IMG/VR virus record: IMGVR_UViG_3300027833_000058
Location: 1-58,612 of that record
DNA length: 58,612 nucleotides
Source of the DNA: a virus
Lineage: Duplodnaviria > Caudoviricetes
Direction: 5' to 3' (one strand)
Shown here piece after piece: positions 21,878 through 49,575 of the stretch (its first letter is position 1; every line of letters starts with the position of its first letter). The notes below the pieces were generated by a model, which was given only the letters and a program-made list of their open reading frames with translations, was not told the origin of the DNA and made no database searches. The translations under genes were made by a program, and so were the position numbers.

Positions 21878-22170
21878 AGTGCCACTTTTCTGTTGCTAAG
21901 TAAGTGGCCAACTCCCTGTGATTATGCCGCTAGGGCTAATCCAGATGGTGCGAAATTTTCATTTGCATTTAGTTTAATTGATCTATGCGCGATCATCCGG
22001 TAAACTCCACTTCACTACAACACCTGTCGATCCTAGTTCAGCCCCATCAAAAACACACTACCCGCTTTATCAGATACGTTCCAGAATTAACTGGAATAGT
22101 GTGTTTTTGGTGGAGCTGTCGGGTACTGCCCCCGAGTCCAGCATGTTTTCACGTTGCTTCAACGTTTACA
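21878..22170 (-). ncRNA. ssrA: Permuted (two-piece) tmRNA; tag peptide ANENFAPSGLALAA
   Basis: Acceptor piece ends GGACTCGGGGGCAGTACCCGACAGCTCCACCA (22108); hairpin intervening segment; coding piece starts GGGGCTGAACTAGGATCGAC (22045); G3.U wobble; tag ORF 21966-21922. Outer ends approximate. Confidence 0.93.
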
Positions 22171-22174
22171 ATAT

Positions 22175-22210
22175 TATTTATATAATATACTAGTAACAGA
22201 CGCTTGTCAA
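22175..22210 (-). promoter_or_regulatory. Overlapping sigma70 (TTGACA-17-TATTAT) and late (TATAAATA) promoters for the tmRNA
   Basis: Both motifs read directly upstream of the acceptor piece. Confidence 0.7.
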
Positions 22211-22217
22211 CAGTTAT

Positions 22218-22490
22218 TTAATCATAACCTAAAACGGCAACTTTAGACATCTCTGCAATGCGTAATTCTGTTACACGATCTTCATATGCTACATCGAAAC
22301 CTTCTTCGGCATATTGGCATCTCTCGTGATTGCCCCATAATCTTTTAAAATAACTATCATAAAGGTATTCAACTACAGAGTCAGGTTCTGCTTTATCAAT
22401 TAGTTGACCTTTTACCATCCAATTCAAACGGTTGGCTTCTTTACGTACTTCTGGTGAGCACATGGTGGGACCTCCAAATATTAACTGCAT
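22218..22490 (-). CDS. Hypothetical protein, probable start MCSPEVR
   Basis: GGAGG RBS precedes the internal ATG. Confidence 0.6.
   Translation of the reverse strand: MQLIFGGPTMCSPEVRKEANRLNWMVKGQLIDKAEPDSVVEYLYDSYFKRLWGNHERCQYAEEGFDVAYEDRVTELRIAEMSKVAVLGYD

Positions 22491-37741: not shown

Positions 37742-37742
<1 letters not shown>
37620..37742 (+). CDS. Small membrane peptide (40 aa)
   Basis: AAGGTGG RBS, one TM segment, sigma70-like promoter upstream. Confidence 0.5.
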
Positions 37743-37818
<76 letters not shown>

Positions 37819-37976
37819 GAAAACCCTCACAAGGGGTTAATCTTATCTTCCGATTGTACACGGTTTAGATAAGTGGGTATATCATCTGGTACCGACGGAA
37901 ACCCAGGCGCTTCTATTGGCGGGACAATAGATAAGGGGAGGGGCAAGCTGCAGCAAACCCCTCCCTTGATTATTAA

Positions 37977-38054
37977 TGGATCGTAGCACAGCCTGGTAGT
38001 TGCGCCTGTCCCTGCGGCAGGAGGTCGTAGGTTCGAATCCTATCGATCCAGCCA
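37977..38054 (+). tRNA. tRNA-Gln(CTG)-like with aberrant anticodon loop
   Basis: Acceptor TGGATCG/CGATCCA, G73, CCA, canonical T arm; loop CCCTGCG. Confidence 0.7.
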
Positions 38055-38076
38055 ATTAAATTTTAAGAGGAAAATT

Positions 38077-38343
38077 ATGAAAGATAATGACGTAGTAACA
38101 GTTGTAGCACCTACTGGCGAATATGTAGGTAGGATGCTTAAGTTTGATGAAACCGGTATTGTATTACAAAATCCCAGAATGATTACTTATTCAGAAGATG
38201 GTATGGGATTCGCAGCAGGTATTGCAGCAACAGGTAATCCAGATCCAAAAGAAGTAACTATTATGAATATTGTATTTGTTACTGAGTGTAATGTTGAGAT
38301 TGTTAAAGCTTGGCATCAAGCAACATCAGGAATTATCTTGTAG
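38077..38343 (+). CDS. Hypothetical protein, possibly Sm-like beta fold
   Basis: GE.VG...L.NP.. pattern; C-terminal TSGIIL. Confidence 0.6.
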   Translation: MKDNDVVTVVAPTGEYVGRMLKFDETGIVLQNPRMITYSEDGMGFAAGIAATGNPDPKEVTIMNIVFVTECNVEIVKAWHQATSGIIL

Positions 38344-38345
38344 TA

Positions 38346-38522
38346 ATGTGGGTTTTAGTTTTTATATATTTCTATGAAACCATGCCATTTGTAGAAAAAG
38401 TAACTGTTGCTGATACAATGGAAAATTGTTTTCTAGCAAGAGAAGCTCTTTCAATGGATGTTGGTAAAGGAGATGGATATTTTATTGAAGGCCAACAAGC
38501 AGTTTGTATTAAAATAGAATAG
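38346..38522 (+). CDS. Small hypothetical protein, probable start MWVLVFI
   Basis: Hydrophobic N-terminus and a Cys pair. Confidence 0.55.
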   Translation: MWVLVFIYFYETMPFVEKVTVADTMENCFLAREALSMDVGKGDGYFIEGQQAVCIKIE

Positions 38523-38523
38523 T

Positions 38524-38607
38524 GCCCGCGTGGTGGAATGGTAGACACTACAGACTTAAAATCTGTTGCTTTACAGCGTACCGGTTCGAGTCCGGTCGCG
38601 GGTACCA
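38524..38607 (+). tRNA. tRNA-Leu(TAA)
   Basis: Cloverleaf with long variable arm, loop CTTAAAA, CCA. Confidence 0.95.
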
Positions 38608-38612
38608 AAAGG

Positions 38613-38689
38613 ACTCCTCTAGCTCAACTGGTTAGAGCTGAGCGCTCATAACGCTTAGGTTACAGGTTCGAGTCCTGTGGGGAGTACCA
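38613..38689 (+). tRNA. tRNA with CAT anticodon (elongator Met or Ile2)
   Basis: Cloverleaf, loop CTCATAA, paired 1:72 so not an initiator, CCA. Confidence 0.9.
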
Positions 38690-38867
38690 AATAAACGGTT
38701 CTATTCCCGTTCTAAAACAATTGAATAGATGGTGCCCAGGAGACCTAAGCAGGTCAGGAAACTGCTTATAAATATATTTAAGGATGATGTTCTACGTATC
38801 AAGTGGTACGTACCATAGTAGTGGAAAGGAACCCACAGCCGGAAATACTATAAATGAGGGATTTAAT

Positions 38868-39074
38868 ATGCATAAGCTATTTGCATTAATGACCGTAGTT
38901 TTATTAGTTGGTTGTAATACCGTAGATTCTGTCATTGGCGGAACTAAAAGTATTGTTGGTGGAGTTGCTTCAGATGTTGTTGGAGTTACTGCGGGCACTT
39001 TAGATGTTGTATCTGGTACAATCAAAATTGCTGCTGATAAGACTGGTGTTGAAACTAAAAACACTGCCGAGTAA
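38868..39074 (+). CDS. Small lipoprotein, entericidin-like
   Basis: Lipobox LVGC followed by NTV; GAGG RBS; late promoter at 38767-38774. Confidence 0.65.
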   Translation: MHKLFALMTVVLLVGCNTVDSVIGGTKSIVGGVASDVVGVTAGTLDVVSGTIKIAADKTGVETKNTAE

Positions 39075-39103: not shown

Positions 39104-39682
39104 CTACTCTTTACTTTCTCTAATTATCTGTCTGATATTTGCATTTATTATAAACTTTTCTGTTACTCTTCTAATGCTTAATACAGAACTTGCAGGAAAA
39201 GCTTTTAAATTTACTGCATTGTTTTGATTACCACCAAGGATGTTATACATCTTAGTTCCATTAGCAGATATACTTGTGCTTGAATAGAACCCAACATGTC
39301 CTTGCCATTCTGAATTTCCTCTTGGTAAAACTACAATGTCACCTTGTTGTGGCTCAGTTACTTCTTCACCATATTTTAAAAAACTTCTGGCTAAAAGATA
39401 ATTGCTTGATACTGATTCTGATGTCGGTAAACGTTCTTCTAATAAAACCATATTAACAAACGCAGCACACCACTCAGTTGTTACAGGATCTACTCCCATA
39501 ATTTGTTTAATAAGCTCTCTATCACGAGCTTCATTTAAACCGTAATAGTAATACGCTTTGTGTGTTAAAGTTGTTTTAAGAGGAACCATTCGTTCTTTTG
39601 GATTTATCTGTTCTATTGCAGAACATCCCAATAGTAGAACGAACATCACAGAAAAAATAATATATTTCATAAGGCCTATCAT
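39104..39682 (-). CDS. TIGR02594-family NlpC/P60/CHAP-like peptidase, lipoprotein
   Basis: LLGC lipobox; WCAAFVN, ARS, GHVGF, LGGNQ; late promoter at 39702-39709. Confidence 0.85.
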   Translation of the reverse strand: MIGLMKYIIFSVMFVLLLGCSAIEQINPKERMVPLKTTLTHKAYYYYGLNEARDRELIKQIMGVDPVTTEWCAAFVNMVLLEERLPTSESVSSNYLLARSFLKYGEEVTEPQQGDIVVLPRGNSEWQGHVGFYSSTSISANGTKMYNILGGNQNNAVNLKAFPASSVLSIRRVTEKFIINANIRQIIRESKE

Positions 39683-39766
39683 TATTATTAATTTTACCTT
39701 TTATTTATATGTTGACATTACGCTAAATACATGTTATAATATAAACTAATATTACAGGAGATTACA

Positions 39767-40651
39767 ATGGCAAAAGTTCTAGTAACGGGTGCAACAGGCT
39801 ACATCGGCAGTCACGTTTGCAAACTCTTAAAATTAAATATGCACGAAGTAGAAGCTTGGGATACTAACATCCACGGCGAATATAATGAGATATCAGAATA
39901 TGTAGATCGATTTGAGAAAATTGATATTACTAATATTCCATATGCTTATGCTCACTTTGATGCAGTAGTTCATCTAGCAGGTCGTAGTGTTGTACCACAG
40001 AGTCTAAAAGAACCAACAGAATACTATAGAGTTAATGCTATGGGTACTTCACATATTCTTGATAAGGTAGCAACACCAAATTTCATTTTCGCTTCTACAT
40101 CTAGTGCTTGGGAAATGGCTTCGCCATATGCAAAAAGTAAAGTAGCAGCAGAAGATATTATTAAGGAAAAAGCAGATGGGCACACTATTTTTAGGTTTTT
40201 TAATGTATCTGGTACTGACGGTACTAATAGGCAACTTGGCCCTCCCAGTCATCTTATCCGTGTTGCTGCTATGGCTAGTCTTGACAAATCTCCCTCAATT
40301 AATATCTTTGGCAATGACTATACTACTCGCGATGGTACTTGCGTCCGGGATTACATTCATGTTCTCGATCTTGCTACTGCTATAGTACAAGCTGTAGAGA
40401 ATGGTCCACGTAACACAGATTACGAATGTCTTGGTAGTTACCAAGGTTTCACTGTTCTAGAGGTTCTAGATATGATGGAGAAAGTAACTGGTGTTAAGTT
40501 GGAAAGAAATATTTCTGGCAGAAGAGAAGGTGATGCTGTATCTTCTGTAGTTGACGAGTTATCAGAGTATGCAGTACTTACTAAAACTCTAGAAGATATG
40601 TGCAGAGATCAATTTAATTTAGAAAAAGGGTTGACAAACACCCAGAACTAA
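39767..40651 (+). CDS. galE: UDP-glucose 4-epimerase-like NAD-dependent epimerase
   Basis: GATGYIG, SPYAKSK, RFFNV, DGTCVRDYIHV. Confidence 0.9.
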   Translation: MAKVLVTGATGYIGSHVCKLLKLNMHEVEAWDTNIHGEYNEISEYVDRFEKIDITNIPYAYAHFDAVVHLAGRSVVPQSLKEPTEYYRVNAMGTSHILDKVATPNFIFASTSSAWEMASPYAKSKVAAEDIIKEKADGHTIFRFFNVSGTDGTNRQLGPPSHLIRVAAMASLDKSPSINIFGNDYTTRDGTCVRDYIHVLDLATAIVQAVENGPRNTDYECLGSYQGFTVLEVLDMMEKVTGVKLERNISGRREGDAVSSVVDELSEYAVLTKTLEDMCRDQFNLEKGLTNTQN

Positions 40652-41012: not shown

Positions 41013-41153
41013 ATGGCAGTTAAATTTGCATCTACTGTAAATATAGTAAAGAACAACAAGAAAACTTCACAAGGCGATAAGAATGTAAAGATGGCTTCAA
41101 TGAATAAGTCAAAGAAACGTTCTTTTAAGAAGTATAGAGGGCAGGGAAAGTAA
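41013..41153 (+). CDS. Small basic protein (46 aa) ending KKYRGQGK
   Basis: Manual translation; AAGGA RBS; C-terminal motif common in marine phages. Confidence 0.7.
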   Translation: MAVKFASTVNIVKNNKKTSQGDKNVKMASMNKSKKRSFKKYRGQGK

Positions 41154-41267: not shown

Positions 41268-41426
41268 CTACGCTTCAGGCTTCCATATAGTCCAAGCACC
41301 GTAAGCAATCATAACGTAAGCTACTAAAGCAACAGGTGCTAGTAACATCATTACTCCACCACCAATAAGCATTGCTCCATCAGCGGATGTTCTTTCTTTT
41401 AGTCTGTTTTTAATAAAATTTATCAT
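41268..41426 (-). CDS. Small membrane protein (52 aa), holin-like
   Basis: Manual translation MINFIKNRLKERTSADGAMLIGGG...YGAWTIWKPEA; AGGAG RBS. Confidence 0.6.
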   Translation of the reverse strand: MINFIKNRLKERTSADGAMLIGGGVMMLLAPVALVAYVMIAYGAWTIWKPEA

Positions 41427-41428
41427 GT

Positions 41429-41764
41429 CTATGTCTCCTTTTTTTGACGAATTATTTTAGCCTTTTTTCCATTCTCTAACGACTTAATTCTCAATTCAAG
41501 TACATTGATATCTGACACAAGACCGTCGATTTTTTTAGTTACTTTAGGATAACGCTTGCGCCACGCTTCTGGGTCGTCTTGTAACCAAGTCCAACCCCAC
41601 CGAACAGCGAGATAATCTAAACAGTTGTCAAATTTCCCCATTGCCCATAATGCCATATTTGTATTTCGAAACCATGCTAGAAATGCTGCACCAAGAATAG
41701 ATCCGGCGATTGCGGTATAAATCCACAGTGTATCTCCGAACATTGCATTAAGTGTATCAATCAT
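41429..41764 (-). CDS. Membrane-anchored hypothetical protein
   Basis: N-terminal TM segment; operonic. Confidence 0.65.
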   Translation of the reverse strand: MIDTLNAMFGDTLWIYTAIAGSILGAAFLAWFRNTNMALWAMGKFDNCLDYLAVRWGWTWLQDDPEAWRKRYPKVTKKIDGLVSDINVLELRIKSLENGKKAKIIRQKKET

Positions 41765-42464
41765 TTAGTTTCTCCGTATGCTTAACATAGTTTTGCATTC
41801 CGTGATCTTCAGCGCCGTCGAGAATACCAGATCTCCAACCACGCCATTTATCTTTTATCATCTGCCAAGTAGTAAGCTTTCTAATATTACCATAGAAGTT
41901 AATATATTGTTGATCACCGTGATGCTTATATCCCATTATGAATAACGGAACTTTTGTCACTAGATCATTATTATTAACGAATCTTTTATGTGGTGTAGAA
42001 ATAGCTTTAACAAACTTTCGTGTGCCAACTCTTGGAGATCCGAATGTTGTTAGTGATTCTACTTCGGTATATTCTTCCATACGTGAAGTACATATAGTTG
42101 CCATTGCAGCACCTAAAGAATGTCCTGTAATATGTAAGGTTTTCTTTTCATGTGTTAATTGATGCTTTGATATAACGCTCCACAGCTTATCACATTCATT
42201 TCTAAATCCTGAATGAACTAAACCGTGAGTCATTGCTCCACGAGGAATTGCATTTAAATCTGCTAATAAGTCAGATAACTCTGAAGGCTCGGTACCTCTA
42301 AAAGCTAATACATATTCTGTTTTATTCCAAAATGCATGGCACTGAGCACCGTCATCTTCGAAAAATTTATGTCCTGTGTAACCTAATTTCTTTTTGAATG
42401 CTTTGGCTTCCTTGCTATCGAGATACGCAATCTCTGCAAGTTGAGCCATTTTATTACTCCACAT
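41757..42464 (-). CDS. Class 3 lipase
   Basis: AFRGT, VHSGF, GHSLG, TFGSPRVG, D.V..VP. Confidence 0.9.
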   Translation of the reverse strand: MWSNKMAQLAEIAYLDSKEAKAFKKKLGYTGHKFFEDDGAQCHAFWNKTEYVLAFRGTEPSELSDLLADLNAIPRGAMTHGLVHSGFRNECDKLWSVISKHQLTHEKKTLHITGHSLGAAMATICTSRMEEYTEVESLTTFGSPRVGTRKFVKAISTPHKRFVNNNDLVTKVPLFIMGYKHHGDQQYINFYGNIRKLTTWQMIKDKWRGWRSGILDGAEDHGMQNYVKHTEKLND

Positions 42465-42478
42465 TTTAACTTCTCCGT

Positions 42479-42625
42479 TTAGGGTATTATATCATATTTA
42501 TTAGGATTCATTGTCTGGTCCATATTAGGTCCGACCTCTTCCCAATACTGTTCACTTCTTTCTGCTGCTATTTGCATGGATATAAGAAGTATCAAAATTC
42601 CAGCCGCCCATATTAACTTACTCAT
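42479..42625 (-). CDS. Small exported or membrane peptide (48 aa)
   Basis: Manual translation MSKLIWAAGILILLISMQIAAE... Confidence 0.5.
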   Translation of the reverse strand: MSKLIWAAGILILLISMQIAAERSEQYWEEVGPNMDQTMNPNKYDIIP

Positions 42626-43007
42626 ATCTATTATCCCAAGGGGCGTTTTCGTTACATCCTGCTGGCAAATGATCTTTATACCAAACGGAAGCTGTCATTC
42701 CACTGGCATTAACAGATATTGTACTTTTTTCAAATGGCATTTCTCTAGGTTTACCCCAGCACCGGTTCATGCTTTGTCCAGGATACAAATATCTTGGATT
42801 GGCCTTTATAAAGCTTTGATATTCTATAAGCTTTTTATTATTGTCAACATCTTTCCAGTCGAAATAACAAGACGCAGCAGCGTTATAATCCCCAGCATTT
42901 TCTAAATTACATTGTCCTATTACTTTGTTATTTTCCGACTGTACGTTTGCGCTAGTAGCAGTCGCTATAAACAGTGGCAAAGCAATTATTCTAATTAGTT
43001 TTCTCAT
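42618..43007 (-). CDS. Exported Cys-containing protein, probable start MRKLIRII
   Basis: Signal peptide at the internal ATG; two Cys pairs. Confidence 0.6.
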   Translation of the reverse strand: MRKLIRIIALPLFIATATSANVQSENNKVIGQCNLENAGDYNAAASCYFDWKDVDNNKKLIEYQSFIKANPRYLYPGQSMNRCWGKPREMPFEKSTISVNASGMTASVWYKDHLPAGCNENAPWDNRYE

Positions 43008-43119
43008 CGTCTTTACACTCACACTTTGTACATACATCATTAACACATTTAGAACAGTCTGTAGCATAGCAGTGACATCGGTGGCCACAACTTTTACAAT
43101 ATCTTTCTGTTCCTTGCAA
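42991..43119 (-). CDS. Metallothionein-like Cys-rich peptide (42 aa, TTG start)
   Basis: MQGTERYCKSCGHRCHCYATDCSKCVNDVCTKCECKDDEKTN; 9 Cys, 2 His; AAAGGT RBS. Confidence 0.7.
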   Translation of the reverse strand: MQGTERYCKSCGHRCHCYATDCSKCVNDVCTKCECKDDEKTN

Positions 43120-43130
43120 TAAATCTACCT

Positions 43131-43772
43131 TTAATTTGCTAAAGGATTGTCGAGAGCACGCTGCAATGTTTTATTTAGAGCAGCATCTAGTTCATCCATT
43201 TTACGTTGTAAAGAAGATCGTAACGCTTCGTTGTCTCGCTCAACCTTGCTTTCTAAATCGGTCATGCGCGAATTATTAGAGTCTCTTAAAGCGTTAGCCT
43301 TTGTGTCATAATCATTTTGCAATGCATCTCTTTTGTTTTCAAAACGTTCTTCAGCATTTTGAATTACTGCACGATTATCTTCTTCTTGTTCTCTAACTTT
43401 ATCATCCATACGATCTACTTGTTTTTCAATTCCAAGTATATCATCTCGTAAACCTGACTTAATATCCCGTGTATATTCTATAGCTTCGTCGATTCTTAAC
43501 ATAGCATCATTAAGTTTAACAATAACTTTGTCGTTTTCTACTTGTATAGCTTCTACATCTATGTTTTGTACAATCTCTTTCATTGCCATATAATCATCAT
43601 ATACTTTAAATGATCCATATAAACCACCGAGGATTGTACTGATCAAGGCAAACAACATACCGATTGTCGTTGGCGTCATAGTGATACCAAAGATTTTCAT
43701 CTTTGTATTCTTTAAATTCTCTATTTCTGCTTCGAAGTTTTCTATGCCTTCGCCTAAATCTTTTTTTGCCAT
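43131..43772 (-). CDS. Membrane-anchored coiled-coil protein
   Basis: Single TM then long heptad region ending LDNPLAN. Confidence 0.7.
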   Translation of the reverse strand: MAKKDLGEGIENFEAEIENLKNTKMKIFGITMTPTTIGMLFALISTILGGLYGSFKVYDDYMAMKEIVQNIDVEAIQVENDKVIVKLNDAMLRIDEAIEYTRDIKSGLRDDILGIEKQVDRMDDKVREQEEDNRAVIQNAEERFENKRDALQNDYDTKANALRDSNNSRMTDLESKVERDNEALRSSLQRKMDELDAALNKTLQRALDNPLAN

Positions 43773-43784
43773 CTGATTATCCTG

Positions 43785-44219
43785 TTAGTTTTCAAACTCT
43801 GCGCTTGTACCTGAGGCATTCAAACGTTTTAAAGCTTCCAGTTCTTGTTGTAGTTTAAGAACTTCTAAACGTTTCTTTCTCAACTCTAATTGGTATAGCG
43901 AATTACAATTAATTCTTTCTTTTGGTTTATCGAGTGGTATAGTAATCCTCGCATAAACACCTATATCTTTTTCTGTATTACCAAAGGGGTCTGAATTATT
44001 TCCTCCAAACGGCGATTGATAATTATCAATAACTCCTGTCACACCAAATTCTAGATTAGTCGCGCCACCAATAGAGTTTTTACAATCTAAGTCTCCTGCA
44101 CGAATACTGTCTTGGCCATATGTACCGCTCATTCCTGGTAATGATATACCTACGCCACTACTTTGGGCATAAGATATACTAGGCACAGAAAGTAAAAGTA
44201 CTAATATCAACTTTTTCAT
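43785..44219 (-). CDS. Exported protein with amphipathic beta-hairpin and C-terminal coiled coil
   Basis: Signal peptide; C...LEFGVTG...GVYARITIPL...C. Confidence 0.65.
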   Translation of the reverse strand: MKKLILVLLLSVPSISYAQSSGVGISLPGMSGTYGQDSIRAGDLDCKNSIGGATNLEFGVTGVIDNYQSPFGGNNSDPFGNTEKDIGVYARITIPLDKPKERINCNSLYQLELRKKRLEVLKLQQELEALKRLNASGTSAEFEN

Positions 44220-44231
44220 TTTATAACCTTT

Positions 44232-44624
44232 TTATTTTACACGCGAACAGATTCTTGACTTTATTGCTGTTCTCGTAATTTCTTTTTTCCTTAATTTGGA
44301 CATTGAGCAAATATAAGTTATTCTTTTCTTATCTTCGTTTCTTATATAGATCTCAACTGATACTGTGCTTAAATACGGTATTTTATAAATTTTGTAATTA
44401 GACACAAATGGAATAGGTTTCCAGTCCTTGGTAAACACTCCTAATTCGTAATATTCTACTTCTGCTCGTTTATTAAAAATTGTCATAGTAGTCTTCTGTA
44501 ACCCATCAATATGTGATATTGAAAGCTCCGGATAAGTTGGAACCATCTCGTGCGAGTAGGCTACAGAAGATATTGTTAATACCATAGCAGCTATAATGTA
44601 TTTCATTTTAGTCATAAATCTCAA
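44232..44624 (-). CDS. Exported beta-rich protein, possibly pilus-chaperone/Ig-like
   Basis: Signal peptide; P..P.L, T.TIFN, alternating strands, Cys pair. Confidence 0.55.
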   Translation of the reverse strand: MRFMTKMKYIIAAMVLTISSVAYSHEMVPTYPELSISHIDGLQKTTMTIFNKRAEVEYYELGVFTKDWKPIPFVSNYKIYKIPYLSTVSVEIYIRNEDKKRITYICSMSKLRKKEITRTAIKSRICSRVK

Positions 44625-44632
44625 TCTTTTAA

Positions 44633-45157
44633 TTATTTAGCTATGCAATCAGCCTGTACTAATGCTGTATAGTTACCACCTGGGAATGCTTTGTTGCCGC
44701 CCATAGTAGCTACTGAACTTGTTTGGAACCAAGTTGAACCAGTTGCTGTTAGGTCATAACGATCCATCATACCTAATTCTATTTTACTTGATTCATAAGC
44801 ACCCATTGTTGTAGCATCTGATACAGTTTTTACAGTTGTATCTCCAGTCCACGTTACTTGATCTGGCAATGTTGGTGATGTGCTAAATTCTTGCGGTCCA
44901 GTAATCTCTGCATAGTATGAATCAGCCAAAGTAACATCAATACGAATTACTGACTGCTCACCACCATCTGAAGATGATGTTGTAAGTGTGTAAGCATTCG
45001 GGTTACCAAAAGTACCTGACGTATCTGTTTGAATAATGCAACGAGATTGTACTGTACCGTTGATTGGTGTTTCATCTGCTTGTGCTATTCCAGCGGGTGC
45101 GGCTAATAAAAACCCCATAAATGCAGTCGCTGTAATCATATTTTTATTGTTAAACAT
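44633..45157 (-). CDS. Exported fimbrial/Csu (SCPU)-like subunit
   Basis: Signal peptide ending AQA; I.GTV...C.I N-terminus; PGG.Y.A.V...C C-terminus; Thr/Ser-rich. Confidence 0.55.
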   Translation of the reverse strand: MFNNKNMITATAFMGFLLAAPAGIAQADETPINGTVQSRCIIQTDTSGTFGNPNAYTLTTSSSDGGEQSVIRIDVTLADSYYAEITGPQEFSTSPTLPDQVTWTGDTTVKTVSDATTMGAYESSKIELGMMDRYDLTATGSTWFQTSSVATMGGNKAFPGGNYTALVQADCIAK

Positions 45158-45172
45158 ATTAGTGTCTCCTAA

Positions 45173-46090
45173 TTATTTTGTAGTTAAATTGTATTGCATG
45201 TCAACCATTTGTTTGTGTAGCAATTGTTGCGCTAATCCATTACGTAAACCACTTTTTCCATCAGGTATATCACCACCAGCCATTACTACCGTTTCATTGT
45301 ATTCACCACCTGGTATATTTACAGGAAAGTAATTACTTATAATAGCAGCTTGTGCAGTACTGTTCATTCTATTTATCGTTTGGTTTTCAGCAAATAGTGC
45401 TGCAGTATCTCCAACCGACATTGCTTTTTCTAAGCGGTATTTTCTATCTTCTTCTTCTTGCGCTTCTAACTCTGCAAGTTCTTCATCTGTTAAACCATCT
45501 TGCTCATTATATTCATCATTAGGATCCCATTCAGCTTGACTTGAATCCCCTTCTTCAACAGCATCATAAATCTTATAATCTATATCCGGTATAACTGGAA
45601 CCGGAGTCTTATAGTTAGGACAATTAGAGTCGAACTGTGGATCGAAACAAGGTGTTACTTTATATGTGTATACAACACTTGCTTCATCAACTGATCCATT
45701 ACCGTCAACTTGTATGCTTCCGTCGCCCCATAAGGCACGTGGAATATTTCCTACTGGTATTGCTCTTTGAATTCTAGTTCCACCTAATGATCCAGGTTTC
45801 CAGTCATCACGTGATCTGAAAACATAACCTTCTCCATTAGCTAATTCATTTTGAACATATACTGTAACCCACTCACCTGTTTCTTTTTGAATACGATAAC
45901 CGTATATTACGTTCTGTATATCCAATCCTGGATTATCAGGCAGAATGTTACCCATTGTCCATTTCAATGCTTGGTCGGCAACTGCATTGCCAGTGTAGCC
46001 GTAATATGGCGTTATGCTTTTACTTTCCTCAGAGGAAGAGTAAGAAGGCCAAAATCCCAGCGCCAATAGCAGGAGCAGCTTTTTCTGCAT
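45173..46090 (-). CDS. Exported hypothetical protein
   Basis: Signal peptide; beta-rich domain; CFDPQFDSNCP; acidic linker; AQQLLH..MV..QY end. Confidence 0.65.
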   Translation of the reverse strand: MQKKLLLLLALGFWPSYSSSEESKSITPYYGYTGNAVADQALKWTMGNILPDNPGLDIQNVIYGYRIQKETGEWVTVYVQNELANGEGYVFRSRDDWKPGSLGGTRIQRAIPVGNIPRALWGDGSIQVDGNGSVDEASVVYTYKVTPCFDPQFDSNCPNYKTPVPVIPDIDYKIYDAVEEGDSSQAEWDPNDEYNEQDGLTDEELAELEAQEEEDRKYRLEKAMSVGDTAALFAENQTINRMNSTAQAAIISNYFPVNIPGGEYNETVVMAGGDIPDGKSGLRNGLAQQLLHKQMVDMQYNLTTK

Positions 46091-46601
46091 CTATAGGTCC
46101 CATTCCTTTTAATTCTTTTTCAGTAGTCTCAACATGTGATTCCCAGCCAAGTTTAGCAGCCTCACCAATTTGCCCATCGTACGGACACGGAGTGCCTGCT
46201 TGCATCATAGCATCGAATACGCCTCTATCTTGGCACATCACAGATACTGCTGCAACTTTCATTCCCATATCGTATAATACTTTTGCGTTCTTTAGTCGTT
46301 GGCAGTTTTCCTCGGTGAATGTACCACCCCCGGAAATACCAAGAATTTGTGTTTGCACAGCAGCAGATACTCCGATCGTACAAAGATCGCTGTTGTTTCC
46401 TGAATTAAATTGTGGTGCAATCGCGCTTGGCGGTGTTTGTTTGATAGTCGTTGTCATACTACCAGACGAAGTAACATTGCTGTCAGTTCCTGAATACGTA
46501 CAAACATAACCTTCTGGACAGTCAATAGTTTCTTGAGCAAGTCCAACATTAGCGAATATCAATAACATCCCGGCGATCGCAGCCATTAGTGTATATCTCA
46601 T
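46029..46601 (-). CDS. Exported Cys-rich protein with beta-hairpin and hydrophobic C-terminus
   Basis: Signal peptide; PPSAIAP, C..GVS.AVQTQILGISGG.....NC.RLK, AAVSVMCQD, GTPCP. Confidence 0.7.
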   Translation of the reverse strand: MRYTLMAAIAGMLLIFANVGLAQETIDCPEGYVCTYSGTDSNVTSSGSMTTTIKQTPPSAIAPQFNSGNNSDLCTIGVSAAVQTQILGISGGGTFTEENCQRLKNAKVLYDMGMKVAAVSVMCQDRGVFDAMMQAGTPCPYDGQIGEAAKLGWESHVETTEKELKGMGPIDAEKAAPAIGAGILAFLLFL

Positions 46602-46652
46602 TTCATTCTTCTCCAGTATACTTCATCATTTTACATTACTACTTACAGTTAT

Positions 46653-46660
46653 TATTTATA
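46653..46660 (-). promoter_or_regulatory. Late promoter TATAAATA heading the exported-protein operon
   Basis: Exact motif about 50 nt upstream of the first ATG. Confidence 0.7.
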
Positions 46661-46738: not shown

Positions 46739-47251
46739 ATGAACACTAACGAATATGACGTCAAAGTACTTAAGGTAGTTGATGGAGATACAATAGACGT
46801 AGATATCGATCTTGGATTCGGTATTACATTAACAGATGAACGAGTAAGAATTATGGGTATTGATACTCCTGAATCTCGTACATCTGATAGAGTAGAAGAT
46901 CTGTTTGGAGAAGCGGCTAAGCTTAGATTAAAGCAGCTTATGAAGAACGGCGGCAAGCTTATCACCACTGAAGACAGAAAAGGTGAGGATATGAAAGGCA
47001 AATTTGGTCGTGTTCTTGGCGATTTCAAGGTAGAGTATAACGGTGAAATGAAAAAAGTAACTGAAATAATGGCTGAAGAAGGCCACTGCGTACCATACTT
47101 TGGCGGATCTAAAGAAGAAACCCAAGCTGCTCATATAGTAAACCGAGTAAGATTACTCAAAGAAGGCCTTGTTACTCAGGCTAAATACGACAAAGCTGTC
47201 ATACAGATGGAAAAAAAGGCTGCAAAAGAGGCTAAAAAGGCTGCAAAATAG
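46739..47251 (+). CDS. Thermonuclease (SNase-like)
   Basis: VVDGDTID, RVRIMGIDTPE, GKFGRVLG. Confidence 0.9.
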   Translation: MNTNEYDVKVLKVVDGDTIDVDIDLGFGITLTDERVRIMGIDTPESRTSDRVEDLFGEAAKLRLKQLMKNGGKLITTEDRKGEDMKGKFGRVLGDFKVEYNGEMKKVTEIMAEEGHCVPYFGGSKEETQAAHIVNRVRLLKEGLVTQAKYDKAVIQMEKKAAKEAKKAAK

Positions 47252-47916: not shown

Positions 47917-48243
47917 ATGGCTATTACATTATCAGCTGCTGCTGAAAAACATATTATCAGAAATCTATCTGAGCGAAAGCAAGGTGTGGGTGTCCGTCTT
48001 GGTGTTAAAACTACGGGATGCTCTGGTCTTGCTTATGTGATAGAATTTGTAGATACTGCTGAAGAACAAGACATTCTTTATAAGTGCGGCGAAATAGATG
48101 TGTTTGTTGATCCTAAAAGTAATGTGTATTTAAACGGAACTCAATTAGATTTTGTTAGAGAAGGTTTAAACGAAGGATTCATATTTAAAAATCCTAATGT
48201 AAGTGCTGAATGCGGATGTGGTGAAAGTTTTACAGTAAACTGA
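47917..48243 (+). CDS. iscA: Fe-S cluster assembly A-type carrier IscA
   Basis: GCSGLAY, F.NPN...CGCGESF. Confidence 0.93.
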   Translation: MAITLSAAAEKHIIRNLSERKQGVGVRLGVKTTGCSGLAYVIEFVDTAEEQDILYKCGEIDVFVDPKSNVYLNGTQLDFVREGLNEGFIFKNPNVSAECGCGESFTVN

Positions 48244-49099: not shown

Positions 49100-49283
49100 C
49101 TCTGCGACCAGCCTTGAGCCAAATTATATTCGGGCCAAGCGCAAATTACGCAGAGCGGTAAAAGCAATATAGGCTGTTTATTGCTTTATATCGTAACCTA
49201 GGTAACAGCCTATACCTGTATTGCCCGTCGGTACAGGATTAAATCAAATCAGGGAGACCAGATAGTCACTTGATAGGGCGGGC
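49100..49283 (+). ncRNA. Candidate pseudoknotted RNA upstream of the co-chaperonin gene
   Basis: Multiple stems whose loops are complementary to downstream segments. Confidence 0.5.
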
Positions 49284-49314
49284 CAAATTCAAATACACTT
49301 TATTATGGAGACTT

Positions 49315-49575
49315 ATGAAGCCCACAAAACGTAACATACTGGTAGTAGATGCTGGTGAAGATACGAAAACCACTGCAGGTGGTATTATACTACAAACAAC
49401 TCTTGACACAGGATCTAAACCTGGATTTGTATTGGCAGTTGGTCCTTTAGCCGATCACATTAAACCTAAAGATAAGGTTGCACTAGATTGGAGCAAAGGA
49501 ATGCCTATAACAGTAAAGGGTGAAAAAGCTATACTGATAAATGAAGATTTTATTTTAGGTGTTTATAACGAGTAA
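49315..49575 (+). CDS. groES: Co-chaperonin, GroES/gp31-like (ATG at 49315)
   Basis: MKP....LV, TTAGGIIL mobile loop, G.VLAVGP, E..ILGV; GGAG RBS. Confidence 0.85.
   Translation: MKPTKRNILVVDAGEDTKTTAGGIILQTTLDTGSKPGFVLAVGPLADHIKPKDKVALDWSKGMPITVKGEKAILINEDFILGVYNE

Follow-up and report, generated by a model that had tools for sequence, protein, structure and literature searches.

Which function is served by a group of exported proteins encoded behind a late promoter in an uncultured marine T4-like phage? The question is raised by six adjacent genes, named here g1 to g6, of the IMG/VR virus record IMGVR_UViG_3300027833_000058 (Duplodnaviria; Caudoviricetes). The stretch of DNA analysed, referred to as the window, comprises positions 1 to 58,612 of that record and is a 58.6-kb piece of a T4-like phage genome with an estimated completeness of 28%. 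An earlier interpretation, made from the DNA letters without database searches and called here the sequence-only reading, had described the six genes as an operon resembling a minimal pilus or secretion apparatus. The explanation that we favour, and in which we place roughly even confidence, is that the genes encode a set of envelope proteins exported late in infection, in which a stripped-down chaperone-subunit pair (g4 and g3) is nested in a core of g1, g2 and g6.

The mature g4 protein comprises 106 amino acids starting at an invariant His25, and contains two further invariant residues, Cys106 and Cys126. The homologues of g4 begin with an MKY sequence aligned with Met7, and the true start of the gene may for that reason be at position 44606. 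The AlphaFold2 model of g4, folded from 24 sequences (predicted local distance difference test, pLDDT, 84.4), is a beta-sandwich of one domain, which confirms the small beta-sandwich suspected by the sequence-only reading. When the model was compared with the PDB using Foldseek, rows 1 to 27 were all chaperones of chaperone-usher systems, aligned over domain 1 with a probability of 1.00; the best match was FaeE (E 4e-4, query template-modelling score TMq 0.52), and DraB, SafB, PapD, FimC and Caf1M were found as well. The VIA-align comparison with 48,161 chains gave SafB (Z 9.2, 95 aligned residues, root-mean-square deviation 2.9), FimC (9.2), YadV (8.7), PapD (8.6), FaeE (8.5), CfaA (8.0), CupB2 (7.9) and CsuC (7.6). 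The chaperones ranked there beside MSP domains of the same superfamily, and the first row was an unrelated immunoglobulin (Ig) domain with Z 9.8. Because chaperones of chaperone-usher systems are matched by both methods, the modelling supports the conclusion that g4 is a single PapD-like Ig domain with the fold of domain 1 of these chaperones. A Pfam search with g4 gave no family at the cut-off and no PapD family at E<=1, and the fold search of BFVD gave generic Ig-like viral proteins only. A role of the N-terminal His as a copper-binding His brace was also considered and rejected, as the homologue of Vibrio phage pVp-1 lacks this residue and chaperones are what the fold searches matched; only low in the lists did PCuA and AmoB appear.

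The putative partner, g3, was folded by AlphaFold2 from 23 sequences, and the resulting model (pLDDT 88.1) is all-beta. At E<=0.001, no PDB match was obtained for it with Foldseek. The pilus proteins found by this method, namely FimF, FimG, the pilin domain of PapG, CfaB, Caf1 and AggA, had probabilities of 0.91-0.99, E values of 7e-3 to 4e-2 and template-modelling scores of 0.35-0.5. In VIA-align, the top rows were MSCRAMM adhesin domains and carbohydrate-binding modules (Z 7.4-7.6), and the only chaperone-usher entries were 9fx8_C, a FimC-type chaperone chain of a FimI-bound type 1 pilus complex (Z 5.6), and the pilin domain of PapG (Z 5.5). Since the Foldseek pilin matches are weak and VIA-align ranks other domains first, g3 is, as modelled, an Ig-like sandwich that is by fold not specifically a pilin. 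Ig or pilin folds had been expected, and this expectation is borne out for the PapD-like g4 and for the Ig-like sandwich of g3, the weak part being the pilin matches of g3.

A GTV...C.I start and a G.Y...V end had previously been noticed in g3 and taken as typical of SCPU (Csu) subunits. Both motifs, NGTVQSRCII and GGNYTALV, are present and conserved in the alignment of 19 sequences, in which Cys40 and Cys171 are invariant. The assignment to the SCPU family is not supported, as no family membership could be detected. PF05229 (SCPU) was matched at E<=10 by none of the 19 g3 homologues, and a six-frame search of the window record at E<=10 found no SCPU sequence. An hhalign comparison of the g3 profile with seven bacterial SCPU sequences gave a probability of 1.6% over 22 columns that cover the N-terminal motif only. 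A HMMER search with the g3 profile among 1.84 billion representatives yielded 103 proteins, for the most part pieces of members of the viral g3 family itself; none was tied to SCPU, and none of the 10 that were scanned matched this family. The one positive result came from a language-model search, in which a cluster named SCPU stood at rank 23 (score 0.95); 15% of its members carry the family. The g3 family itself is large, 3074 of 8000 scored candidates being proteins with E<=0.01. A WF...YG.G.AF motif is all that is shared by four long repeat proteins in the profile matches (P0209, P0216, P0218 and P0220), which were set aside as coincidental or motif-driven.

The mature forms of g3 (residues 29-174) and g4 (residues 25-130) were co-folded three times, and three controls were run. 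The interface score ipSAE (interaction prediction score from aligned errors) was 0.78 for g3-g4 (0.79, 0.78 and 0.77 in the individual runs) compared with 0.03 for the best of the controls; in the calibration of the tool, this level was attained for 58 of 80 solved complexes and for 2 of 110 mismatched pairs. The model contains approximately 116 contacts, with a partner pLDDT of 88-89 and a contact agreement between runs of at least 97%. The tightest pairs join residues 166-173 of g3 with residues 120-127 of g4 at a constant offset of 46, that is, as parallel strands. Residue 42 of g3 contacts residues 123 and 125 of g4, and the N-terminal residues 25-31 of g4 are also part of the interface. 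This pairing, together with the contacts of residue 42, places the g4 strand between the first and the last strands of g3. Within the donor stretch of g4, S123, I125, C126 and S127 are invariant. In the Pap, Fim and Caf complexes the same geometry represents donation of the chaperone G1 strand (donor-strand complementation), and the models predict that g3 and g4 bind in a similar way, with the inserted strand running parallel. The pairing of a subunit with a chaperone, proposed by the sequence-only reading, thus gains support from the models. The four invariant cysteines (Cys40 and Cys171 of g3, Cys106 and Cys126 of g4) cluster at the predicted interface.

Another conserved part of g3 is an N-terminal extension (residues 28-39), which lies outside both the modelled core and the named interface with g4. 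I32, V36, S38, R39 and C40 are invariant in the 19 sequences and G34 is nearly so. In the alignment, the extension is conserved at alternating positions, as expected of a donor strand. We infer that g3 could polymerise by strand exchange.

The genomic context was compared in 106 related viral loci, of which 26 were found via g3. The 80 further loci consist of 78 viral loci obtained with a long g2 relative as query and two phage-like contigs from a genome scan with g2. In the 26 IMG/VR loci (59-82% identity), the order g1-g2-g3-g4-g5 is kept in every case as far as the contig reaches, in agreement with the conserved gene order expected earlier; g6 usually follows directly after g5 and stands behind a lipase gene in two loci (L008 and L009). 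Profile searches of the 80 loci detected g1 in 72, g2 in 72, g6 in 75, g3 in 46, g4 in 45 and g5 in 42, and g3, g4 and g5 were always located between g2 and g6. Two architectures can be distinguished, one with g1, a short g2, g3, g4, g5 and g6, and one with g1, a long g2, variable small exported or membrane proteins and g6 but no g3-g5, the latter in 34 of the 80 loci. Other small envelope proteins occupy the slot between the long g2 and g6 in such loci (L034 10250-11541, L037 10778-11107, L043 9400-10148 and L063 9665-10275), among them a 108-amino-acid protein whose last residue is aromatic, another helical protein with a membrane anchor, LxGC-box lipoproteins and peptides anchored by their tails. 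According to the flanking genes, all these loci belong to relatives of one T4-like clade, within which the neighbourhoods of the module shift.

Genes of the g1-g2-g6 core also occur in phages beyond this clade. Pelagiphage HTVC115P encodes homologues of g1 (gp54) and g6 (gp49, E 1.8e-27), this phage being the sole tblastn match of g6, and its gp53 stands at the g2 position with a C-terminus resembling that of g2. Roseophage CRP-810 has homologues of g1 (gp53) and g6 (gp51), and podovirus ctXG6705 carries g1 and a g6-like gene with a PF00959 lysozyme two open reading frames (ORFs) further on. All g6 relatives end with NPL and a small residue. The remaining three genes occur without g1, g2 and g6 in the T5-like Vibrio phage pVp-1, in which gp077-079 correspond to g3, g4 and g5 in this order (hidden Markov model E values 1.5e-9, 8.5e-8 and 3.6e-12; hhalign probabilities 95.7% for g3 and 68% for g4), downstream of the fibre-like gp075 and gp076 and upstream of holin and endolysin genes. 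Vibrio phage VF16, a relative of pVp-1, lacks g3, g4 and the two fibre-like genes and retains a g5-like piece. Comparison with pVp-1 (L123 4369-11015) looks like a natural deletion of these four genes. In a 186-amino-acid ORF of VF16 (L120 6734-7294), a g5-like C-terminus is attached to the N-terminus of the homologue of pVp-1 gp074. As the core occurs without the trio in 34 of the 80 loci and the trio without the core in pVp-1, the six genes are, by gene content, two modules, a core (g1, g2 and g6) and a mobile trio (g3, g4 and g5). Synteny consequently argues against one indivisible apparatus.

The scan of 185,579 species genomes with g2 gave two loci, both on phage-like contigs of one metagenome-assembled genome. 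In a sample of 401 genomes of the phylum of this metagenome-assembled genome, g4 was found in one, the same genome, on four contigs. Bacterial homologues were not found in the genomes searched (185,579 with g2, 401 sampled with g4), a result from which their absence cannot be claimed. At least four to six contigs of the phage clade (L029, L030, L124-L127) are binned in one bacterial genome bin (G001), which looks like mis-binning or co-occurrence and is no proof of a host. Both g3 and g5 are abundant, with thousands of clusters at 90% identity in ocean metagenomes, some of them Tara-labelled.

The layout of the genes is presented in Table 1. The intergenic gaps in g1-g6 are 8-15 nucleotides, with the exception of g1 and g2, which overlap by 62 nucleotides, and a GGAG sequence stands ahead of the g1 start codon. 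The T4-type late-promoter motif TATAAATA upstream of g1 occurs 16 times in the window compared with 9.48 expected, a count reached in 1 of 100 shuffles. By manual reading, at least 10 of the 16 copies are located 20-80 nucleotides 5' of a co-oriented ORF, and the motif is found within 150 nucleotides 5' of g1 in 19 of 37 distinct related loci. A late promoter ahead of six tightly packed co-oriented genes had been pointed out by the sequence-only reading, and its position and the short gaps agree with that description. The products of g1-g5 begin with a hydrophobic segment followed by a cleavage-type site with small residues. These segments vary in sequence and keep their hydrophobicity in all aligned homologues, and conservation starts directly after them. 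Signal peptides were called by heuristics. Cysteine counts are even (six in g1, two each in g2, g3, g4 and g5, none in g6), and on the heuristic call the signal peptides and paired cysteines attributed earlier to five of the genes were recovered. No lipobox was found in g1-g5. The earlier view that the genes probably encode exported proteins of a non-virion type behind a late-promoter motif is supported. Short metatranscriptome contigs from two studies are scattered over the block at low depth with 90-99% identity; such contigs say nothing on operon structure, and the parts left uncovered prove nothing.

Table 1. Positions of the late-promoter motif, the six genes and the continuation of the block in the window (lengths in amino acids)
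Feature	Position	Strand	Length	Remark
TATAAATA T4-type late-promoter motif	46653-46660	-		52 nucleotides upstream of g1 ATG
g1	46029-46601	-	190	
g2	45173-46090	-	305	
g3	44633-45157	-	174	
g4	44232-44624	-	130	
g5	43785-44219	-	144	
g6	43131-43772	-	213	
9-Cys peptide	42991-43119	-	42	block continuation
Exported 4-Cys protein	42618 to ~43007	-		block continuation
Membrane peptide	42479-42625	-	48	block continuation
Lipase_3 protein	41757-42464	-		Pfam E 1.8e-20; block continuation
Membrane protein with charged tail	41429-41764	-	111	block continuation
Membrane peptide	41268-41426	-	52	block continuation

As shown in Table 1, the co-oriented block continues past 43131 to 41268 with small gaps and six more ORFs. 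The lipase and the 111-amino-acid protein adjoin the g1-g6 module in many other loci, and in L048 they are placed between g2 and g6. Further along, a 192-amino-acid protein (39104-39682, minus strand) with a lipoprotein-type N-terminus (LLLGC) is located directly behind a copy of TATAAATA at 39702-39709 (minus strand). Its CHAP match (E 2.4e-5) reached 25.1 bits, the Pfam cut-off being 26, and it may be an exported peptidoglycan hydrolase. A small ORF at 38784-39074 (plus strand), preceded by TATAAATA at 38767-38774 (plus strand), has an internal Met that precedes a lipobox-like LLVGC, and a Gly/Val-rich tail, and possibly encodes a small late lipoprotein. A very basic peptide of 46 amino acids (41013-41153, plus strand), possibly ribosomal-protein-like, ends with KRSFKKYRGQGK, a tail near-identical to that of gp50 in HTVC115P, which is located within the g1-g6 module of that phage.

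Elsewhere in the window, T4-type replication genes were found for DNA polymerase, a gp46-like nuclease subunit, topoisomerase II and a helicase. The DNA polymerase has a maximum identity of 43.9% among 2684 matching phage records, with cyanomyophages at the top. A permuted transfer-messenger RNA (tmRNA) of alphaproteobacterial type is located at 21878-22225 on the minus strand (RF01849, 115 bits, E 1.9e-32; RF04321, 108 bits), and its tag peptide according to ARAGORN is ANENFAPSGLALAA. Because the phage carries a tmRNA of this type, an alphaproteobacterial host is hinted at. There are also four tRNA genes (Arg, Gln, Leu and Met) and genes for an Fe-S cluster assembly protein (PF01521), a GroES homologue (PF00166), an NAD-dependent epimerase (PF01370) and a nuclease (PHROG 452), located in the regions 37742-38689, 47917-48243, 49270-49575, 39767-40651 and 46739-47251, all on the plus strand.

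None of g1-g6 gave a match above the cut-off in Pfam or NCBIfam, and PHROGs contributed families of unknown function only, for g1 and g5. PDB sequence-profile searches with g1-g5 gave nothing meaningful. In the phage collection, no nucleotide-level match to the six-gene block was obtained, and the protein searches found nothing for g2 and g3 and one weak match (E 0.2) for g4. The exported g1 protein has six Cys, an N-terminal signal-like segment and a C-terminal hydrophobic tail (residues 174-190); it belongs to PHROG 20531 (E 8.9e-14), and 14 phage records, six of them from pelagiphages and two from roseophages, contain homologues. The same 62 nucleotides (46029-46090, minus strand) encode this tail and, in another frame, the signal peptide of g2, and the overlap is kept in related loci (62-71 nucleotides where checked). 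The g2 protein is exported and has two domains, with an aromatic-rich N-terminal beta-type region that ends with PCxDPQFDxxCPxY, an acidic linker and the invariant C-terminus GLRNGLAQQLLHxxMVDMQY. Long forms of 500-940 amino acids contain repeated CxxxPLYDxxCPGY units, and a search restricted to longer proteins gave 13 relatives of 592-868 amino acids with the invariant C-terminus and these repeats. No match of g2 was found in Pfam or the PDB, and none that was usable in the ESM Atlas. An exported endolysin was considered for g2 and dropped, the N-terminal domain having no invariant acidic residue, His or Ser. Some phage relatives of g1 and g2 are annotated as 'OmpA family' and 'tonB', which Pfam did not bear out.

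In g5, Cys46 and Cys105 bracket two conserved beta-type stretches, which are followed by a Leu-rich C-terminal helix. The protein matches PHROG 37374 (E 7.5e-8) and 180 Vibrio phage records, and its family comprises 5525 proteins at E<=0.01 among 8000 scored. Cys-bracketed amphipathic hairpins had been proposed for both g5 and g1. The bracketing stands for g5, in which the amphipathicity of one strand is marginal (3.04 versus a shuffle 95th percentile of 3.01), and that of the g1 hairpin is not above chance (2.08 versus a shuffle median of 2.28), by a crude measure in both cases. The g6 protein has a short cytoplasmic N-terminus, one membrane segment (residues 34-54) and a long charged helical region; its relatives (111-221 amino acids) differ in the length of this region and share the invariant C-terminal LQRALDNPLA[ND]. 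The membrane anchor and the long helix of the sequence-only reading can be retained; by a crude measure, the maximum heptad score of 1.40 is not above shuffles (95th percentile 1.54), and 'long helix' is for this reason a safer label than coiled coil.

If these elements are put together, a protein set would be sent late in infection via the Sec pathway into the host envelope. There, as the models predict, g3 would be an Ig-like subunit with an opening in its sandwich between the first strand and the last, and g4 a one-domain PapD-like chaperone that caps the open edge with its own C-terminal strand by donor-strand complementation. The g3 extension (I32-x-G34-x-V36-x-S38-x-C40) would then displace the g4 strand on a neighbouring subunit, giving rise to short fibres. 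The trio travels together in two unrelated phage lineages, and g5 may act with g3 and g4 at the outer membrane. A helical stalk anchored in the inner membrane, with its invariant C-terminal peptide, could be provided by g6, and an adhesin-like exported protein with an invariant C-terminal domain by g2, accompanied by the Cys-rich g1. The structure would reside in or on the envelope of the infected cell and would not be part of the virion; receptor masking, adhesion or aggregation is its most likely purpose, this being the weakest step, and an envelope or surface fibre is our best guess for the function of g1-g6. A bolder version of the same explanation, which we regard as tentative and rather doubtful, is a self-sufficient donor-strand fibre system that works without an usher, is built on the dying cell and consists of the one-domain chaperone, a strand-exchanging subunit and g5 as a 125-amino-acid outer-membrane partner, nested in an envelope-spanning g1-g2-g6 complex; the four invariant interface cysteines would possibly lock the g3 polymer.

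Bacterial fimbriae are characterised by donor-strand complementation with a PapD-like chaperone. The likeness to chaperone-usher pili (Pap, Fim, Caf1, Csu) comprises a Sec-exported Ig-like subunit, a periplasmic chaperone with a predicted PapD-like fold, a predicted last domain-1 strand parallel to the last strand of the subunit and beside its first, and a conserved N-terminal extension of alternating small and hydrophobic residues in g3. The differences are considerable: g4 has one domain of 106 amino acids in its mature form instead of two domains and about 200 amino acids, g3 and g4 have no Pfam-level sequence relation to these systems, the Cys pair of g3 joins the first and last strands, an exported g5 protein stands alongside, and the genes belong to a lytic phage, lie behind a late-promoter motif and include no usher. 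As the sequence-only reading had held, a classical usher is missing: no ORF of about 800 amino acids and no Pfam match of this kind was found in the block or its flanks, nor was one found beside the module in the 106 loci, with 28% of the genome in hand. According to two reports, archaeal threads and cannulae are donor-strand filaments formed without an usher, so that the full bacterial machinery is not needed (10.1101/2022.04.26.489512; 10.1101/2024.12.30.630787); they differ from the proposed system in being archaeal cell appendages with no chaperone. One cannula chain was present in the VIA-align list of g3 (Z 5.6). In the phage literature, as far as titles and abstracts tell, no phage-encoded PapD-like chaperone or donor-strand system was found, and the examined passages of a pelagiphage preprint (10.1101/2019.12.14.876532) contain nothing on these genes.

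Other functions have to be weighed against the envelope set with its chaperone-subunit pair. The block could be a lysis module, in which g6 would resemble an i-spanin or a T-type holin, g1 and g2 would act at the outer membrane, breakdown of the envelope would be completed by the lipase together with the small membrane proteins and the CHAP-matching lipoprotein, and g3-g5 would be accessory. For the block as a whole we consider this unlikely; for the core g1-g2-g6, a lysis-related role is a serious rival. The topology of g6, in which the invariant C-terminal peptide follows a spacer that varies in length, fits that of spanins (Rz/Rz1, PseT.3/PseT.2) and of the T4 holin T, and the g1 and g2 genes overlap as those of many spanin pairs do, but g1 and g2 are much larger and Cys-rich, neither a spanin nor a holin family was matched in Pfam, and, as g1-g5 have no lipobox, there is no o-spanin-like lipoprotein partner. 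Relatives of g2 of up to 940 amino acids, with several beta-domains and Cys repeats, are likewise far beyond the complexity of spanins. Gene neighbourhoods speak for lysis: in ctXG6705, g1, the g2-position gene and the g6-like gene are followed by one ORF and the lysozyme, and in HTVC202P and Baldr the module lies directly before the large terminase gene, as lysis cassettes do in lambdoid phages. The module is also common to phage families of related hosts, and in the window the Lipase_3 gene, holin-like small membrane proteins and the late-motif gene of the CHAP-matching lipoprotein lie within 4 kb. The pVp-1 trio is located about 0.6 kb upstream of holin and endolysin genes; nevertheless, pVp-1 and VF16 have annotated Rz-like spanins, holin and endolysin besides the trio, and a chaperone-subunit pair has no known place in lysis.

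A further explanation concerns the trio and assumes that no polymer is formed: a periplasmic g3-g4 heterodimer, or a capped g3 monomer, would bind a host envelope component and block a receptor, a defence or an uptake system, resulting in superinfection exclusion or in protection of the progeny from debris. Its probability appears low to us, similar to that of the lysis module. It would account for the missing usher and for the ligand-binding adhesin and carbohydrate-binding domains that head the fold matches of g3. In T5, the gene of a receptor-blocking lipoprotein adjoins the gene of the receptor-binding protein; in pVp-1, the trio stands directly after the large fibre-like gp075 and gp076 (835 and 861 amino acids), which have no signal peptides and of which gp076 has no Pfam match, and VF16 lacks g3 and g4 together with the fibre-like genes. 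T5 Llp, T4 Sp and T4 Imm are signal-bearing exclusion proteins with their site of action in the host envelope and no place in the virion, and to this extent they are comparable with the proteins described here; they are, however, single small early proteins and not a multi-gene late-motif module with a chaperone-subunit pair. Exclusion functions of T4 are early, so late-promoter timing would be odd for exclusion, and the invariant g3 extension outside the core and the g4 interface fits strand exchange better than a dead-end dimer. Finally, the phage subunit and chaperone might be fed into a host-encoded usher and decorate or poison host fimbriae, which we think very improbable. SCPU-type fimbrial genes of bacteria were found in some likely relatives of the host, namely 5 of 61 sampled genomes of one Rhodobacteraceae-family set, and the tmRNA hints at such hosts; g3, however, has no sequence relation to the SCPU proteins of this set, usher recognition normally requires a two-domain chaperone, and Vibrio phages, which infect very different bacteria, carry the trio as well.

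Several points weigh against the explanation that we favour, the late-exported set with a g3-g4 pair. The signal peptides of g1-g5 are heuristic assignments, and the metatranscriptome contigs lend weak support, DNA carry-over being possible. By VIA-align, adhesin and carbohydrate-binding domains rank above pilins among the matches of g3, for which the sequence searches gave no connection to SCPU or to a Pfam or NCBIfam family, and g4 consists of one domain, in contrast to the two domains of known chaperones. The g3-g4 score is a model confidence that may echo solved chaperone-subunit complexes rather than real binding. In the predicted complex, Cys40 and Cys171 of g3 flank the g4 strand on opposite sides, which is awkward for a simple disulfide between them. 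Besides the usher, a recognisable outer-membrane barrel is missing in the operon, its flanks and the related loci, again with 28% of the genome in hand. Moreover, the trio is dispensable, being missing from 34 of the 80 loci and reduced to a g5-like piece in VF16.

To our knowledge, subunit-chaperone machinery is so far known from bacteria and not from lytic phages. Should the usher-free fibre system be real, no smaller chaperone-dependent pilus machinery would be known and none would have been described earlier from a virus, and a working one-domain chaperone would set the minimum for donor-strand chemistry. Vibrio phage pVp-1 and its natural deletion relative VF16 offer a cultivable handle on the trio. 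The g1-g2-g6 core, common to cultured pelagiphages and a roseophage, is a candidate for an unannotated envelope function, possibly lysis; no spanin annotation was found in the examined phage records that carry this core, and the literature on pelagiphage spanins has, by title or abstract, nothing on the g1-g2-g6 module. If the envelope reading is correct, lytic phages would remodel the envelope or surface of the infected cell with fibre-type proteins of their own, and given the abundance of these genes, an influence on aggregation, on superinfection or on adsorption to debris could be relevant to the ecology of marine phages.

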